Of a stretch of DNA of 52,416 nucleotides, positions 3,992 through 25,001 are shown piece after piece. The stretch comes from a virus. Its lineage: Duplodnaviria; Heunggongvirae; Uroviricota; Caudoviricetes. The notes below the pieces were generated by a model. The model worked only from the letters and a program-made list of their open reading frames with translations. It made no database searches and had not been told where the DNA came from. The translations under genes and the position numbers were made by a program. Every line of letters begins with the position of its first letter. Position 1 is the first letter of the stretch. The stretch lies in IMG/VR virus record IMGVR_UViG_2896589216_000005. The stretch is one strand, 5' to 3'.

Positions 3992-4180
3992 TTATCCAGC
4001 CGGTATTTCGTTATTCAGGTTCAGCGATACTTTTTTTAACGGGAGGCATTCACCGGGGATTTTTTGTTCGTCCCTTACCTGAATGCAGGATGACTTACTG
4101 TCATAAATTCCGGTAATCACATTTTGTGGCTCACCCGTTATAAGAAAAACGGTCATCACCAGTGCAAATGCTGAAGTCAC
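3992..4180 (-). CDS. Small protein with hydrophobic N-terminus downstream of dicB (YdfD-like by position), 62 aa
   Basis: ORF whose GTG start overlaps the dicB stop (GTGA); position matches ydfD of the Qin dicB operon. Confidence 0.45.
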   Translation of the reverse strand: MTSAFALVMTVFLITGEPQNVITGIYDSKSSCIQVRDEQKIPGECLPLKKVSLNLNNEIPAG

Positions 4181-4344
4181 TGCTGTTCTCCGATAATACC
4201 AAGTTCAAGAAGGGCAATTCTGGAAAGTATGGAATTATCATTGAGAAGATAAGGTTCATATTTTCTCATCTTAATGGCATCTTCCGTAAACTCCCGGTTA
4301 CTGAGCAGAACACCAATATCAAAACAACCGGTAATGACTCCAAC

Positions 4345-4722
4345 TTATTGATAGTGTTTTATGTTCAGATAATGCCCGATGACTTTGTCATGCAGCTCCA
4401 CCGATTTTGAGAACGACAGCGACTTCCGTCCCAGCCGTGCCAGGTGCTGCCTCAGATTCAGGTTATGCCGCTCAATTCGCTGCGTATATCGCTTGCTGAT
4501 TACGTGCAGCTTTCCCTTCAGGCGGGATTCATACAGTGGCCAGCCATCCGTCATCCATATCACCACGTCAAAGGGTGACAGCAAGCTCATAAGACGCCCC
4601 AGCGTCGCCATAGTGCGTTCACCGAATACGTGCGCAACAACCGTCTTCCGGAGCCTGTCATACGCGTAAAACAGCCAGCGCTGGCGCGATTTAGCCCCGA
4701 CGTATCCCCACTGTTCGTCCAT
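4345..4722 (-). CDS. insB: IS1 InsB (transposase frame, normally expressed as InsAB fusion by -1 frameshift)
   Basis: 125-aa ORF matching IS1 InsB. Confidence 0.9.
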
Positions 4723-4766
4723 TTCCGCGCAGACGATGACGTCACTGCCCGGCTGTATACGCGAGG

Positions 4767-5042
4767 TTACCGACTGCGGCCTGAGTTTTTTAAGTGACGT
4801 AAAATCGTGTTGAGGCTAACGCCCATAATGCGTGCAGTTGCCCGGCATCCAACGCCATTCATGGCCATATCAATAATTTTCTGGTGCGTACCGGGTTGAG
4901 AAGCGGTGTAAGTGAACTGCAGTTGCCATGTTTTACGGCAGTGAGAGCAGAGATAGCGCTGATGTCCGGCAGTGCTTTTGCCGTTACGCACCACCCCGTC
5001 AGTAGCTGAACAGGAGGGACAGCTGATAGAAACAGAAGCCAC
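4767..5042 (-). CDS. insA: IS1 InsA
   Basis: 91-aa ORF matching IS1 InsA (zinc-finger N-terminus CPSC...CSHC). Confidence 0.92.
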
Positions 5043-5315
5043 TGGAGCACCTCAAAAACACCATCATACACTAAATCAGTAAGTTGGCAGCATCACCAAA
5101 CAACCTTCAGACGTATTAACGTTTGGTAATAACGTTTCCATTATCGCGTCCTCAACAATGAATTTTGTGATGCGGTGCCTGGTGCCTCCAGGTGACGTTA
5201 ACCAGTTAACAATTAACGCCGGATACAGAGAATCCACCCATAACACTGTTTTTGGTTTTAACTGTTCTGCGTGCGCTCAGCCGCATTCACCACATCACAA
5301 AATTCACTTTAAAAA

Positions 5316-5368
5316 GGGCGGCAGAGCAGTCACGGAGTAAAACTGATACCGCCAAACGTCACCAGAAA
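5316..5368 (-). ncRNA. dicF: DicF small regulatory RNA (53 nt) followed by U-tract
   Basis: Reverse complement of 5316-5368 reads UUUCUGGUGACGUUUGGCGGUAUCAGUUUUACUCCGUGACUGCUCUGCCGCCC followed by UUUUU, matching the DicF sequence as recalled. Confidence 0.88.
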
Positions 5369-5673
5369 ATTGATAACAGAGGGCGTTGCAGCGGGGTTGT
5401 CACTTAAGCGTATGGTCAACCTGACAACCCGGTGTCCTCAGCGGGGGAAGGAATAACCCCGCCATACTTACCGCCGCGCCATTTCGCGGATTGCCACAAC
5501 CGGAAGCGCACGATCGAATTAAATTTAACGACGACCTATACAGAGAGACTAACTTCTCCGGGCGCTTTCGTGTTATGCCCTGACTTTTCAGGGATATATC
5601 CTTTTCAGTAAACTGTCAGTGCCGGATTCTTATCCGTGTCCGGCGCACGCACTCTACCTCACCTGTGAATAAA

Positions 5674-12926: not shown

Positions 12927-13094
12927 ATGACCACTATTACCAAAGAACGTATTGAATTGTTCATTAAAAACCCGCTTGAAAACGGGCTTACCCGTGGTGA
13001 ACAAATGGAACTGGCACGGATTGCGCTGGCATCGCTGGAAGCAGAGCCGGTTGTGTTCTGGTTTGAAAAATATCAAGAAGGGGCTACGGCATGA
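12927..13094 (+). CDS. Small hypothetical protein, 55 aa
   Basis: ATG at 12927 preceded by AAGGAG SD; stop overlaps the next start (ATGA). Confidence 0.4.
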
Positions 13095-13293
13095 CGACTT
13101 TTACCAGAGAGCAGTTAATAGCTCACGCAGAGGAGACTATTGAAGCACAGAGACTGTGCATACCGGGCACAATCGACCATGACATCATCCGCACATATAA
13201 GATAGACTGGCCCCCTGAATCTCCAGACAACCAGTATCACTTAAATAAGTGATAGTCTTAATACTAGTTTTTAGACTAGTCATTGGAGTACAG

Positions 13294-13659
13294 ATGATTG
13301 ATGTCTTAGGGCCGGAGAAACGCAGACGGCGTACCACACAGGAAAAGATCGCAATTGTTCAGCAGAGCTTTGAACCGGGGATGACGGTCTCCCTCGTTGC
13401 CCGGCAACATGGTGTAGCAGCCAGCCAGTTATTTCTCTGGCGTAAGCAATACCAGGAAGGAAGTCTTACTGCTGTGGCCGCCGGAGAACAGGTTGTTCCT
13501 GCCTCTGAACTTGCTGCCGCCATGAAGCAGATTAAAGAACTCCAGCGCCTGCTCGGCAAGAAAACGATGGAAAATGAACTCCTCAAAGAAGCCGTTGAAT
13601 ATGGACGGGCAAAAAAGTGGATAGCGCACGCGCCCTTATTGCCCGGGGATGGGGAGTAA
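13294..13659 (+). CDS. insC: IS2 InsC (orfA)
   Basis: 121-aa ORF from [14 protein letters not shown]6G slippery site before stop. Confidence 0.9.
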
Positions 13660-14522
13660 GCTTAGTCAGCCGTTGTCTCCGGGTGTCGCGTGCGCAGTTG
13701 CACGTCATTCTCAGACGAACCGATGACTGGATGGATGGCCGCCGCAGTCGTCACACTGATGATACGGATGTGCTTCTCCGTATACACCATGTTATCGGAG
13801 AGCTGCCCACGTATGGTTATCGTCGGGTATGGGCGCTGCTTCGCAGACAGGCAGAACTTGATGGTATGCCTGCGATCAATGCCAAACGTGTTTACCGGAT
13901 CATGCGCCAGAATGCGCTGTTGCTTGAGCGAAAACCTGCTGTACCACCATCGAAACGGGCACATACAGGCAGAGTGGCCGTGAAAGAAAGCAATCAGCGA
14001 TGGTGCTCTGACGGGTTCGAGTTCTGCTGTGATAACGGAGAGAGACTGCGTGTCACGTTCGCGCTGGACTGCTGTGATCGTGAGGCACTGCACTGGGCGG
14101 TGACTACCGGCGGCTTCAACAGTGAAACAGTACAGGACGTCATGCTGGGAGCGGTGGAACGCCGCTTCGGCAACGATCTTCCGTCGTCTCCAGTGGAGTG
14201 GCTGACGGATAATGGTTCATGCTACCGGGCTAATGAAACACGCCAGTTCGCCCGGATGTTGGGACTTGAACCGAAGAACACGGCGGTGCGGAGTCCGGAG
14301 AGTAACGGAATAGCAGAGAGCTTCGTGAAAACGATAAAGCGTGACTACATCAGTATCATGCCCAAACCAGACGGGTTAACGGCAGCAAAGAACCTTGCAG
14401 AGGCGTTCGAGCATTATAACGAATGGCATCCGCATAGTGCGCTGGGTTATCGCTCGCCACGGGAATATCTGCGGCAGCGGGCTTGTAATGGGTTAAGTGA
14501 TAACAGATGTCTGGAAATATAG
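13617..14522 (+). CDS. insD: IS2 InsD (orfB transposase, DDE)
   Basis: 301-aa ORF in the -1 frame relative to insC. Confidence 0.9.
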
Positions 14523-14766
14523 GGGCAAATCCAAAGATGGATATTGCTGTTCTGGAAATCGCACTGGTATCGCTGGCAGCAGAGCCAGCCGGTAAATTGC
14601 ATGAATACAAACCAGTGGGATATCAGCGTCTGGTCGATGAGTTAACCATGCTGGTAAAGCAGTTAACCTGGCAACTGAGGAAAGCGAAGCCAGACTGCAA
14701 ATTACCGGATAAGGCGATGAGTTATCTGGAGCGGAACGGACTGATAAGCGTGGAGGATATTTTACG

Positions 14767-14850
14767 ATGACCTGGCCTGAAGCATTAACAACGGTAGGAA
14801 TTGCGATGGCGGTGGCGCTGGTGGTGTATTCGATTTGCCGCTGGGGATAA
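14767..14850 (+). CDS. Possible 27-aa hydrophobic peptide
   Basis: ATG overlaps the upstream stop (ATGA); product MTWPEALTTVGIAMAVALVVYSICRWG; too short to be confident. Confidence 0.25.
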   Translation: MTWPEALTTVGIAMAVALVVYSICRWG

Positions 14851-15061
14851 AAACGGTTTGCGGGAAAAGGAGAGTTAAGTAGAATTGCAGCGGGTGCTTG
14901 AGGCTATCTGTCTCAGGCATGAACACCAAAAGGCAGATAGAGAAAAGCCCCAGTTAACATTACGCGTCCGGCAAGACGCTTAACATTAATCTGAGGCCAT
15001 ATCTATGCTCTACACACGTAGGTTAGCCTCTTACGTGCCGAAAGGCAAGGAGAAGCAGGCT

Positions 15062-15217
15062 ATGAAGCAGCAAAAGGCGATGCTAATCGCCCTGATCGTC
15101 ATCTGTTTAACCGTCATTGTGACGGCACTGGTAACGAGGAAAGACCTCTGCGAGGTACGAATCCGAACCGGCCAGACGGAGGTCGCTGTCTTCACAGCTT
15201 ACGAACCTGAGGAGTAA
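15062..15217 (+). CDS. hok: Hok/Gef-family membrane toxin (51 aa)
   Basis: MKQQKAMLIALIVICLTVIVTALVTRKDLCEVRIRTGQTEVAVFTAYEPEE matches the Hok family signature (closest recalled member HokD/RelF). Confidence 0.8.
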   Translation: MKQQKAMLIALIVICLTVIVTALVTRKDLCEVRIRTGQTEVAVFTAYEPEE

Positions 15218-15285
15218 GAGACCCGGCGAGGGAGAAATCCCTCGCCACCTCTGATGTGGCAGGCATTCTCAACGCACCCGCACTT

Positions 15286-15318
15286 AACCCGCTTCGGCGG
15301 GTTTTTGTTTTTATTTTC
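15286..15318 (+). terminator. Rho-independent terminator after hok
   Basis: GC hairpin CCCGCTTCGGCGGG followed by T-run. Confidence 0.5.
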
Positions 15319-23516: not shown

Positions 23517-23662
23517 AAAGTGAGCCAGTCAAATGGAAGGTATCGTTAAACTCACCGGTAGTGTCAGTGGGTAGACTGGCCCCCTGAATCTCCAGACAAC
23601 CAGTATCACTTAAATAAGTGATAGTCTTAATACTAGTTTTTAGACTAGTCATTGGAGTACAG

Positions 23663-24094
23663 ATGATTGATGTCTTAGGGCCGGAGAAACGCAGACGGCG
23701 TACCACACAGGAAAAGATCGCAATTGTTCAGCAGAGCTTTGAACCGGGGATGACGGTCTCCCTCGTTGCCCGGCAACATGGTGTAGCAGCCAGGCAGTTA
23801 TTTCTCTGGCGTAAGCAATACCAGGAAGGAAGTCTTACTGCTGTGGCCGCCGGAGAACAGGTTGTTCCTGCCTCTGAACTTGCTGCCGCCATGAAGCAGA
23901 TTAAAGAACTCCAGCGCCTGCTCGGCAAGAAAACGATGGAAAATGAACTCCTCAAAGAAGCCGTTGAATATGGACGGGCAAAAAAGTGGATAGCGCACGC
24001 GCCCTTATTGCCGGGGATGGGGAGTAAGCTTAGTCAGCCGTTGTCTCCGGGTGTCGCGTGCGCAGTTGCACGTCATTCTCAGACGAACCGATGA
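23663..24094 (+). CDS. insC: IS2 orfA (InsC) of copy 2, C-terminally altered
   Basis: ORF extended to 143 aa by the 1-bp deletion; S-to-R substitution relative to copy 1. Confidence 0.7.
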
Positions 24095-24890
24095 CTGGAT
24101 GGATGGCCGCCGCAGTCGTCACACTGATGATACGGATGTGCTTCTCCGTATACACCATGTTATCGGAGAGCTGCCCACGTATGGTTATCGTCGGGTATGG
24201 GCGCTGCTTCGCAGACAGGCAGAACTTGATGGTATGCCTGCGATCAATGCCAAACGTGTTTACCGGATCATGCGCCAGAATGCGCTGTTGCTTGAGCGAA
24301 AACCTGCTGTACCACCATCGAAACGGGCACATACAGGCAGAGTGGCCGTGAAAGAAAGCAATCAGCGATGGTGCTCTGACGGGTTCGAGTTCTGCTGTGA
24401 TAACGGAGAGAGACTGCGTGTCACGTTCGCGCTGGACTGCTGTGAGCGTGAGGCACTGCACTGGGCGGTGACTACCGGCGGCTTCAACAGTGAAACAGTA
24501 CAGGACGTCATGCTGGGAGCGGTGGAACGCCGCTTCGGCAACGATCTTCCGTCGTCTCCAGTGGAGTGGCTGACGGATAATGGTTCATGCTACCGGGCTA
24601 ATGAAACACGCCAGTTCGCCCGGATGTTGGGACTTGAACCGAAGAACACGGCGGTGCGGAGTCCGGAGAGTAACGGAATAGCAGAGAGCTTCGTGAAAAC
24701 GATAAAGCGTGACTACATCAGTATCATGCCCAAACCAGACGGGTTAACGGCAGCAAAGAACCTTGCAGAGGCGTTCGAGCATTATAACGAATGGCATCCG
24801 CATAGTGCGCTGGGTTATCGCTCGCCACGGGAATATCTGCGGCAGCGGGCTTGTAATGGGTTAAGTGATAACAGATGTCTGGAAATATAG
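24051..24890 (+). CDS. insD: IS2 orfB (InsD) of copy 2, N-terminally truncated (279 aa)
   Basis: Lacks the first 22 codons present in copy 1; D-to-E substitution. Confidence 0.7.
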
Positions 24891-25001
24891 GGGCAAATCC
24901 AGTGGGTCGTCTGAGATGCCTGCATGAGTTATCAGAGCCATCAGTACTTAACTGGTGGCTTTTTTTATTGTTGTCAGCTTCCGGATAACGGGAGACGGGG
25001 T

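Follow-up and report, generated by a model that had tools for sequence, protein, structure and literature searches.

IS2, an insertion sequence (IS) of the IS3 family, has a published anatomy of 41/42-bp (base pair) ends, OrfA and OrfB, and an A6G frameshift site. It moves by copy-out-paste-in through a minicircle with a 1-bp spacer, and its choice of target is non-random, as seen in the hemB pattern and in curvature-associated targets (PMC3299598). Here we describe an IS2 insertion in a tailed-phage genome record (IMG/VR record IMGVR_UViG_2896589216_000005, Caudoviricetes), whose whole 52,416-nucleotide (nt) stretch is hereafter called the window. The first of two IS2 copies in the window, copy 1, interrupts a lambdoid-prophage accessory gene for a 114-amino-acid (aa) protein, catalogued as WP_000206826.1. 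The element is very probably a canonical, apparently active IS2 that inserted there recently. The parts of the split gene and of the element are listed below.

13091..13203, plus strand: split gene, 5' part, codons 1-37 plus 2 nt
13199..13203: target-site duplication AAGAT, left copy, its last T ambiguous with the first IS2 base
13203..14533, plus strand: IS2 copy 1, 1331 bp with the T at 13203 included (left limit 13203/13204), in operon orientation
13294..13659, plus strand: IS2 orfA, 121 aa, with an HTH_Tnp_1 domain (E=2e-19)
13611-13617, plus strand: A6G frameshift window AAAAAAG, within the orfA/orfB overlap
13617..14522, plus strand: IS2 orfB, 301 aa, with rve (E=1e-18), rve_3 and HTH_21 domains, stop codon at 14520-14522
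14534..14538: target-site duplication AAGAT, right copy, by direct reading
14539..14770, plus strand: split gene, 3' part, from the third base of codon 38 to the TGA stop

The interrupted gene can be rebuilt exactly. Removing IS2 and one copy of AAGAT joins 13091..13203 to 14539..14770, giving 345 nt in a single frame that encode 114 aa plus a stop codon and placing the insertion point between codons 37 and 38. The base T at 13203 fits either assignment: counted as target repeat, it leaves 5 bp of AAGAT and a 1330-bp element; counted as IS2, it leaves 4 bp of AAGA and an element of the canonical 1331 bp. Neither choice alters the rebuilt gene. Direct reading and the 345-nt join thus bear out the initial annotation, which had proposed one gene split by IS2 and recoverable by excision. 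They agree equally with its reading of the start, where ATGA at 13091-13094 couples the gene to the open reading frame (ORF) upstream: the ATG at 13091 overlaps the TGA (13092-13094) of a 55-aa ORF. The annotation had given a size of about 115 aa ending at 14770; frame and end hold, and the exact size is 114 aa, or 115 codons counting the stop. Its description of the gene family as unknown stands for function and falls for identity, as the protein is catalogued under WP_000206826.1 and matches a profile, PHROG 660.

The uninterrupted allele is widespread in relatives. The rebuilt 345 nt occurs without a break and at 100% identity in each of the 30 best-listed complete Escherichia coli genomes; 518 records of such genomes match it at an identity of at least 99%, and a single site covering 80% or more of the query is present in 563 of 5426 complete E. 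coli genomes. In strains 042, K_EC180 and NCTC86 (CP019778) the intact allele is annotated as a single coding sequence (CDS), the 'hypothetical protein' WP_000206826.1, with a 4-nt overlap between its start and the stop of the gene before it. Phages vB_EcoS-689R5 and PhiR49_2 encode the intact protein at 100% identity and the Shiga toxin (Stx) phage ArgO145 at 99.1%, and the best 80 IMG/VR loci all encode it intact at 99-100% identity. Relatives with two separate genes and no uninterrupted allele would have spoken against the initial annotation; the gene is instead continuous in E. coli genomes and in phages, and the genome matches together with the annotation exclude two genes divided by an internal stop in relatives. 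In relatives the gene is one unit.

The inserted element is an intact IS2 with the published anatomy. IS2 insertions described in E. coli genes and prophages are 1331 bp long, with TAGACTGG... / ...CAAATCCA ends, imperfect inverted repeats, an orfA/orfB pair with an A6G -1 frameshift window, HTH_Tnp_1 and rve domains, and a short target duplication. Copy 1 is about 1.33 kb long, has TA.../...CA ends and the two-ORF frameshift layout, and carries a 5-bp duplication; its matches in the complete E. coli genomes are labelled 'IS3-like element IS2 family transposase'. Its left end, TAGACTGGCCCC, begins at 13203/13204, where the junction reads (T)AGACTGGCCCCCTGAATC; the canonical left end, TAGACTGG, is the one found in copy 2 of the window and in NCTC86. 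Its right end, ...GGGGCAAATCCA, closes at 14533, up to which the sequence reads ...TATAGGGGCAAATCCA. The terminal inverted repeats (about 13203-13244 and 14493-14533) are imperfect, with arms 13212-13244 and 14493-14525 79% complementary. No difference from the described insertions is essential: the 5-bp duplication requires the first T of IS2 to be counted as target, and the insertion site of the window is missing from the collections searched. The exact junction was found neither in the complete E. coli genomes nor in IMG/VR nor among the GTDB representative genomes. This allele is private and of recent origin: its flanks retain 100% identity to the uninterrupted gene, the two AAGAT copies match perfectly, and the IS2 frames remain open.

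The same gene has been hit by IS2 a second time elsewhere. Three NCTC86-lineage assemblies (LR217818, OZ489144 and LT601384) have an IS2 variant, 1331 bp long, in this gene at a site 26 bp upstream of that in the window; it lies in the same orientation and is flanked by a TCGAC duplication (4144-5474 in locus L003, NZ_LR217818.1); variant and flanks are about 94% identical to the window. This junction was not found in IMG/VR. A further NCTC86 assembly, CP019778 (locus L090, NZ_CP019778.1), has the intact allele in an identical prophage. NCTC86 stocks therefore differ at the locus, which suggests IS movement between them and points to ongoing movement of this kind in culture collections. That two IS2-type insertions fall so close together, 26 bp apart, with one polymorphic between stocks of Escherich's strain NCTC86, speaks for a local IS2 target preference; the pair fits the known non-random target choice and does not by itself show selection.

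The window holds another IS2 in the late region of the prophage.

23572..24901, plus strand: IS2 copy 2, same orientation as copy 1, with a 5-bp duplication GTGGG

Copy 2 lies between a SASA/NanS-like esterase gene and a class II holin gene, and a search of the complete E. coli genomes did not recover its junction in any other strain. Two substitutions separate copy 2 from copy 1, together with the loss of 1 nt (CCCGGGG>CCGGGG) just past the A6G window. As this deletion breaks the orfB/orfAB frame, copy 2 is probably transposase-defective. Each of the two copies has its own intact target duplication.

These data bear on three other accounts of the insertion. That the flanking ORFs are separate genes joined in frame by coincidence draws on nothing beyond an a priori one-in-three chance of a frame match, and we hold it vanishingly improbable: the identical, continuous 345-nt ORF recurs in hundreds of genomes and in isolated phages, it is annotated as a single CDS, and certain 77-aa 'short forms' in databases arise from the start codon chosen for an intact ORF or are IS remnants. 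An assembly artefact, with a repeat collapsed or misplaced over a gene that is really intact, would sit well with the multicopy nature of IS2 and with the absence of the exact junction from the three collections. The duplication, however, is perfect and the junctions are clean on both sides, the two IS2 copies of the window differ at three positions and so were resolved separately, and a comparable real insertion is known in NCTC86; an artefact is highly unlikely.

Selection for the insertion deserves a little more weight and still seems improbable. Under that account, loss of the gene or a polar block toward Q was favoured and tamed the prophage, by domestication or grounding, and the second IS2, ahead of the holin gene, would contribute to the same outcome. 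One prophage does hold two IS2 copies, with copy 2 between the esterase and holin genes, and the NCTC86 lineage independently gained a same-orientation IS2 variant 26 bp away. Yet these are only two independent events among about 590 genomes with the gene, non-random IS2 insertion (PMC3299598) explains their clustering without selection, the polymorphism between NCTC86 stocks looks like recent transposition in culture, and hundreds of genomes keep the gene intact at 100% identity. We therefore retain a recent, ordinary IS2 insertion as the account of this locus.

The insertion would abolish the full-length 114-aa protein. IS2 would have entered at codon 37/38 by copy-out-paste-in and left the short AAGAT duplication behind. 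The frame of the 5' fragment runs into IS2 and encodes 53 aa, 37 native residues and 16 IS2-encoded ones, with a stop at 13250-13252. On the 3' side an ATG at 14537 (Met38) is retained, and the 77-aa ORF that it opens, 14537..14770, spans the entire conserved core of the family; this remnant is an annotated CDS in NCTC86 (WP_000350274.1). The leftover products would thus be the N-terminal hybrid and, at best, a weak 77-aa remnant, possibly made at a low level by reinitiation past the orfB stop (14520-14522) or from read-through transcripts. The locus also contains an 87-aa hybrid ORF, 14507-14770, whose ATG lies within the right inverted repeat of IS2; its frame continues through the 3' gene fragment, and the final 16 nt of orfB overlap it in a different frame. 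Beyond the split gene, IS2 probably reduces transcription and translational coupling into a downstream 27-aa ORF and the genes that follow. A consensus promoter and terminator scan around the insertion gave chance-level counts, and for this reason we claim no outward promoter for IS2.

Several points weigh against this account of the insertion and its effects. The exact insertion allele comes from one assembly and was not found in the collections searched. IS2 insertions are generally taken to be polar on downstream genes, and polarity is assumed here from that general behaviour; antiterminated transcription, if present at this locus, may pass through the element. The function assigned to the protein below derives from composition, a moderate-confidence model and family architecture.

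The gene appears dispensable for the phage, its loss tolerated. Because NCTC86 carries an independent insertion and another NCTC86 assembly the intact allele, that loss seems to come without obvious cost. The event is an ordinary, recent IS2 disruption of a known and widespread prophage gene, a textbook IS insertion into a dispensable accessory gene that carries little weight for biology at large. Its use lies in annotation: both fragments should bear one label, that of an IS-disrupted pseudogene. Element and gene are already in databases, and the sole mildly new item is a conserved, unannotated 27-aa membrane-peptide cassette directly downstream, which we take up after the protein itself.

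The 114-aa protein belongs to a family known from enterobacterial prophages. It matches PHROG 660 ('ACLAME 31', a hypothetical lambdoid phage protein; function unknown) with E=8e-43 and, more weakly, other families of unknown function. The profile spans 193 positions, of which the protein matches two stretches, making it a short member. The rebuilt gene shares 100% DNA identity over 345 nt with that of WP_000206826.1, from which the window copy differs in being split by IS2. All homologues are confined to enterobacterial prophages, and their alignment is mosaic, with the first ~40 residues variable and a nearly invariant core thereafter (IALASLAAEPAG-KLHEYKPVGYQRLVDELTMLVKQLTWQLRKAKPDCKLPDKAM.YL.RNGLISVEDILR). 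Scans of Pfam, NCBIfam and PADLOC gave no significant family for the 114-aa, 55-aa or 27-aa products, and the PADLOC defence models gave 0 matches to any of the three at E<=1.

Both ends of the protein are shared with other phage genes. The N-terminal module (MTT.T.E... IAL.SL.AEP) is common to the upstream 55-aa gene, to EaA and to DUF551 proteins.

12927..13094, plus strand: upstream 55-aa gene, WP_000207997.1, named 'EaA protein' in phage records

The 55-aa and 114-aa proteins are 33% identical over 54 columns (BLASTP, E=1e-5), and the shorter one matches PHROG 3323 (E=1e-19) and PHROG 60 by profile; by this sequence evidence the 55-aa gene and the N-terminal module of the split gene are paralogous. 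The C-terminal module, 'ELTMLVK...GLISVEDILR', also ends N15 gp45 and ST64B Sb32, the latter annotated as Ead/Ea22-like; residues 58-114, the last 57, resemble the C-terminus of Sb32 at 52.6% identity. Two variants display rearrangements of these parts. In variant P0031 the N-terminus of the 55-aa gene is fused exactly to the core of the 114-aa gene, as expected from recombination inside the common IALASL.AEP stretch, and in variant P0029 an internal deletion shifts the frame of the 114-aa gene straight into the 27-aa ORF. Short database entries proved not to be natural isoforms: the 77-aa entries, considered as Met38 short forms, reflect a choice of start codon, as the full 120-aa ORF is open in locus L101, and a 71-aa entry is cut by a contig end.

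Structure prediction gives an all-helical protein. An AlphaFold2 model built on a 17-sequence alignment has a mean predicted local distance difference test (pLDDT) score of 71.6 and helices at residues 6-26, 30-51, 63-87, 95-103 and 109-113. Its N-terminal hairpin (6-26 and 30-51) is predicted with confidence, with per-block pLDDT values of 85-92 over residues 11-50; a disordered linker, the long helix 63-87 and two short helices follow. In this model the insertion cuts the middle of helix 2 of the hairpin. A Foldseek search of the model against the PDB and BFVD returned none at E<=0.001 and only generic helical hairpins. Querying PDB sequences with either the protein alone or the family profile turned up only designed coiled coils or noise; the profile matched the designed coiled coils and nothing else, over residues 58-89.

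The protein shares surroundings with EaA, DUF551 and Ead/Ea22-like proteins and stands outside their profiles. It occurs in the same neighbourhoods, the ea and nin-like arrays; EaA and DUF551 proteins have its N-terminal 'MTTITKE...' module, and N15 gp45 and the Ead/Ea22-like ST64B Sb32 have its C-terminal module; a predicted coiled-coil segment is a further feature in common. It matches, however, neither the Pfam profiles nor the NCBIfam ead/Ea22-like model: against Ead/Ea22-like (PF13935, NCBIfam) there was no Pfam match at E<=1 and no NCBIfam match at E<=0.1, and against DUF551 (PF04448) no Pfam match, although DUF551 is present in some homologues with the common N-terminal module (P0064, P0066 and P0098). 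Since it fails the Ead_Ea22 profile, we do not class it there. The lambda Ea22 sequence is not known to carry this C-terminal module. Lambda Ea22, which forms tetrameric coiled coils and promotes lysogeny (PMC7093339; PMC10834534), is the nearest studied analogue in lifestyle. Most likely the 114-aa protein comes from the mosaic pool of EaA, DUF551 and Ead-Ea22 genes and is an all-helical accessory protein, small and soluble, whose subunits associate through a coiled coil. Its probable mode of action is binding to a partner from host or phage rather than enzymatic catalysis.

A short hydrophobic ORF is coupled to the stop of the split gene, as the initial annotation had pointed out.

14767..14850, plus strand: 27-aa hydrophobic ORF, MTWPEALTTVGIAMAVALVVYSICRWG, with a start codon that overlaps the TGA of the split gene

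A GGAGGA Shine-Dalgarno sequence lies 9 nt upstream, and the peptide has one predicted membrane span with a small-xxx-small motif. By tblastn the ORF is present in 91 phage records at 74-96% identity, among them 933W-like Stx2 phages (Min27). Its variation is of a coding type: third codon positions account for 15 of 24 distinct variant sites (P=0.003), 12 of the 24 being synonymous, and in a wider set of 49 alleles for 25 of 46 variant sites (P=0.003) within the stretch of the ORF that the search pattern left free. Indels stay in frame, with a VV deletion in K_EC180, an AM duplication in locus L061 and a 9-nt deletion in L101. Coding-type conservation, a ribosome-binding site and a hydrophobic span thus occur together, and on this sequence evidence the ORF is probably a real gene for a small single-pass membrane protein, conserved and mostly unannotated.

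The small ORF also behaves as a unit independent of its surroundings. Three unrelated classes of gene lie upstream of it, ending in ...VEDILR, in ...PLPEPPQEVNQ (DUF551-type) or in ...NIEQEVNR (coiled-coil), with ATGA coupling in every case. Homology between otherwise different phages stops at or just past its stop codon, after which many different sequences follow. We somewhat favour the view that the ORF, with consensus MTWPEAFTTVGIAMAVALVVYSICRWG, represents a genuine, widespread and essentially unannotated family of phage micro-membrane proteins, a self-contained cassette of lambdoid coliphages that is always ATGA-coupled and marks the 3' boundary of a mosaic module. If so, the IS2 of the window would uncouple it from its upstream gene. 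Found in many coliphages, Stx phages included, the ORF is a reasonable candidate for small-protein study.

A role in DNA or RNA without translation, as a recombination linker at the module boundary or as a leader of the hok/sok transcript, is possible, if unlikely. The ORF is unannotated in RefSeq genomes and has no significant PHROG family, it often lies directly upstream of hok/sok, and some alleles are broken: a 1-nt deletion of the vB_EcoS-689R5 type, W3* in locus L032 and ATG>ATA in L092. These broken alleles count against a membrane protein family as well and, few as they are, suggest that the ORF too is dispensable. Against an untranslated element stand the third-position excess at 15 of 24 and 25 of 46 sites, the in-frame indels, the strong GGAGGA Shine-Dalgarno sequence, and a peptide that stays 74-78% identical through many synonymous changes behind three unrelated upstream classes and ahead of at least 15 different downstream sequences, many of them without hok. 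A translated micro-membrane protein remains our preferred reading.

Two existing annotations read this region differently. In vB_EcoS-689R5 (locus L004, 1842-1952) and four IMG/VR loci the second codon is short of one C (ATGACTGG against ATGACCTGG), and owing to the missing base the phage record annotates a 36-aa ORF in another frame; in the original frame the downstream codons of these alleles differ from those of the window mostly by synonymous changes. The 1-nt loss is either a sequencing error or a recent frameshift. In Min27 (locus L099, 1178-1750, minus strand) a 190-aa 'hypothetical protein', pMIN27_79, covers both the homologue of the 27-aa ORF and its upstream gene; this call is probably spurious and hides the small gene.

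The peptide recalls the type I toxins and small prophage membrane proteins (Hok/Gef, Ibs and Ldr) in being short and hydrophobic with one span and in lying beside hok/sok. It has no sequence similarity to Hok, however, and occurs without hok in many contexts; unlike type I toxins, it is coupled to the preceding gene rather than independently regulated, and an Rfam scan detected no antisense RNA over the ORF. N15 gp45.1, considered as a homologue, is an unrelated hydrophilic 18-mer, and we found nothing on the peptide sequence in the literature. The ORF is distinct from the hok/sok module that starts at about 14892.

14892..15217, plus strand: hok/sok type I toxin-antitoxin module, complete, starting about 40 nt past the 27-aa ORF

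Within this module, 14892-15067 matches sok (Rfam RF01794, 117 bits, E=3e-27) and 15005..15217 is the hokD/mok ORF, with hokD annotated in E. coli 042. The spacing from the small ORF to hok, about 155 nt, is the same in the Stx2 phage Min27, upstream of mokW.

In E. coli 042 a lambdoid prophage beside ompW is collinear with the window. Gene order runs from int-xis-exo through dicB, the immunity region, an O-like gene and P to a dozen small, mostly overlapping accessory genes (among them DUF1627, DUF977, DUF4406, Ead/Ea22-like, DUF7167 and DUF4014), and then to the 55-aa gene, the 114-aa gene and the 27-aa ORF; hok/sok, DUF968, RusA, Q, and the lysis and morphogenesis genes lie beyond. Here the 114-aa gene sits in the rightward operon, in a nin-like accessory block between the replication gene P and the antiterminator Q, as the last long member of a translationally coupled chain of small genes ahead of hok/sok-DUF968-RusA-Q. 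The same gene lies in the leftward ea region adjoining xis/int in PhiR49_2 and downstream of an HNH endonuclease gene in ArgO145: it is a portable module. Just past hokD, positions 15226-15307 give a sub-threshold Rfam match to the Hfq-binding small RNA isrK (26.6 bits against a gathering threshold of 50, E=0.007), and collinearity with E. coli 042 ends at 15307, the end of this weak match.

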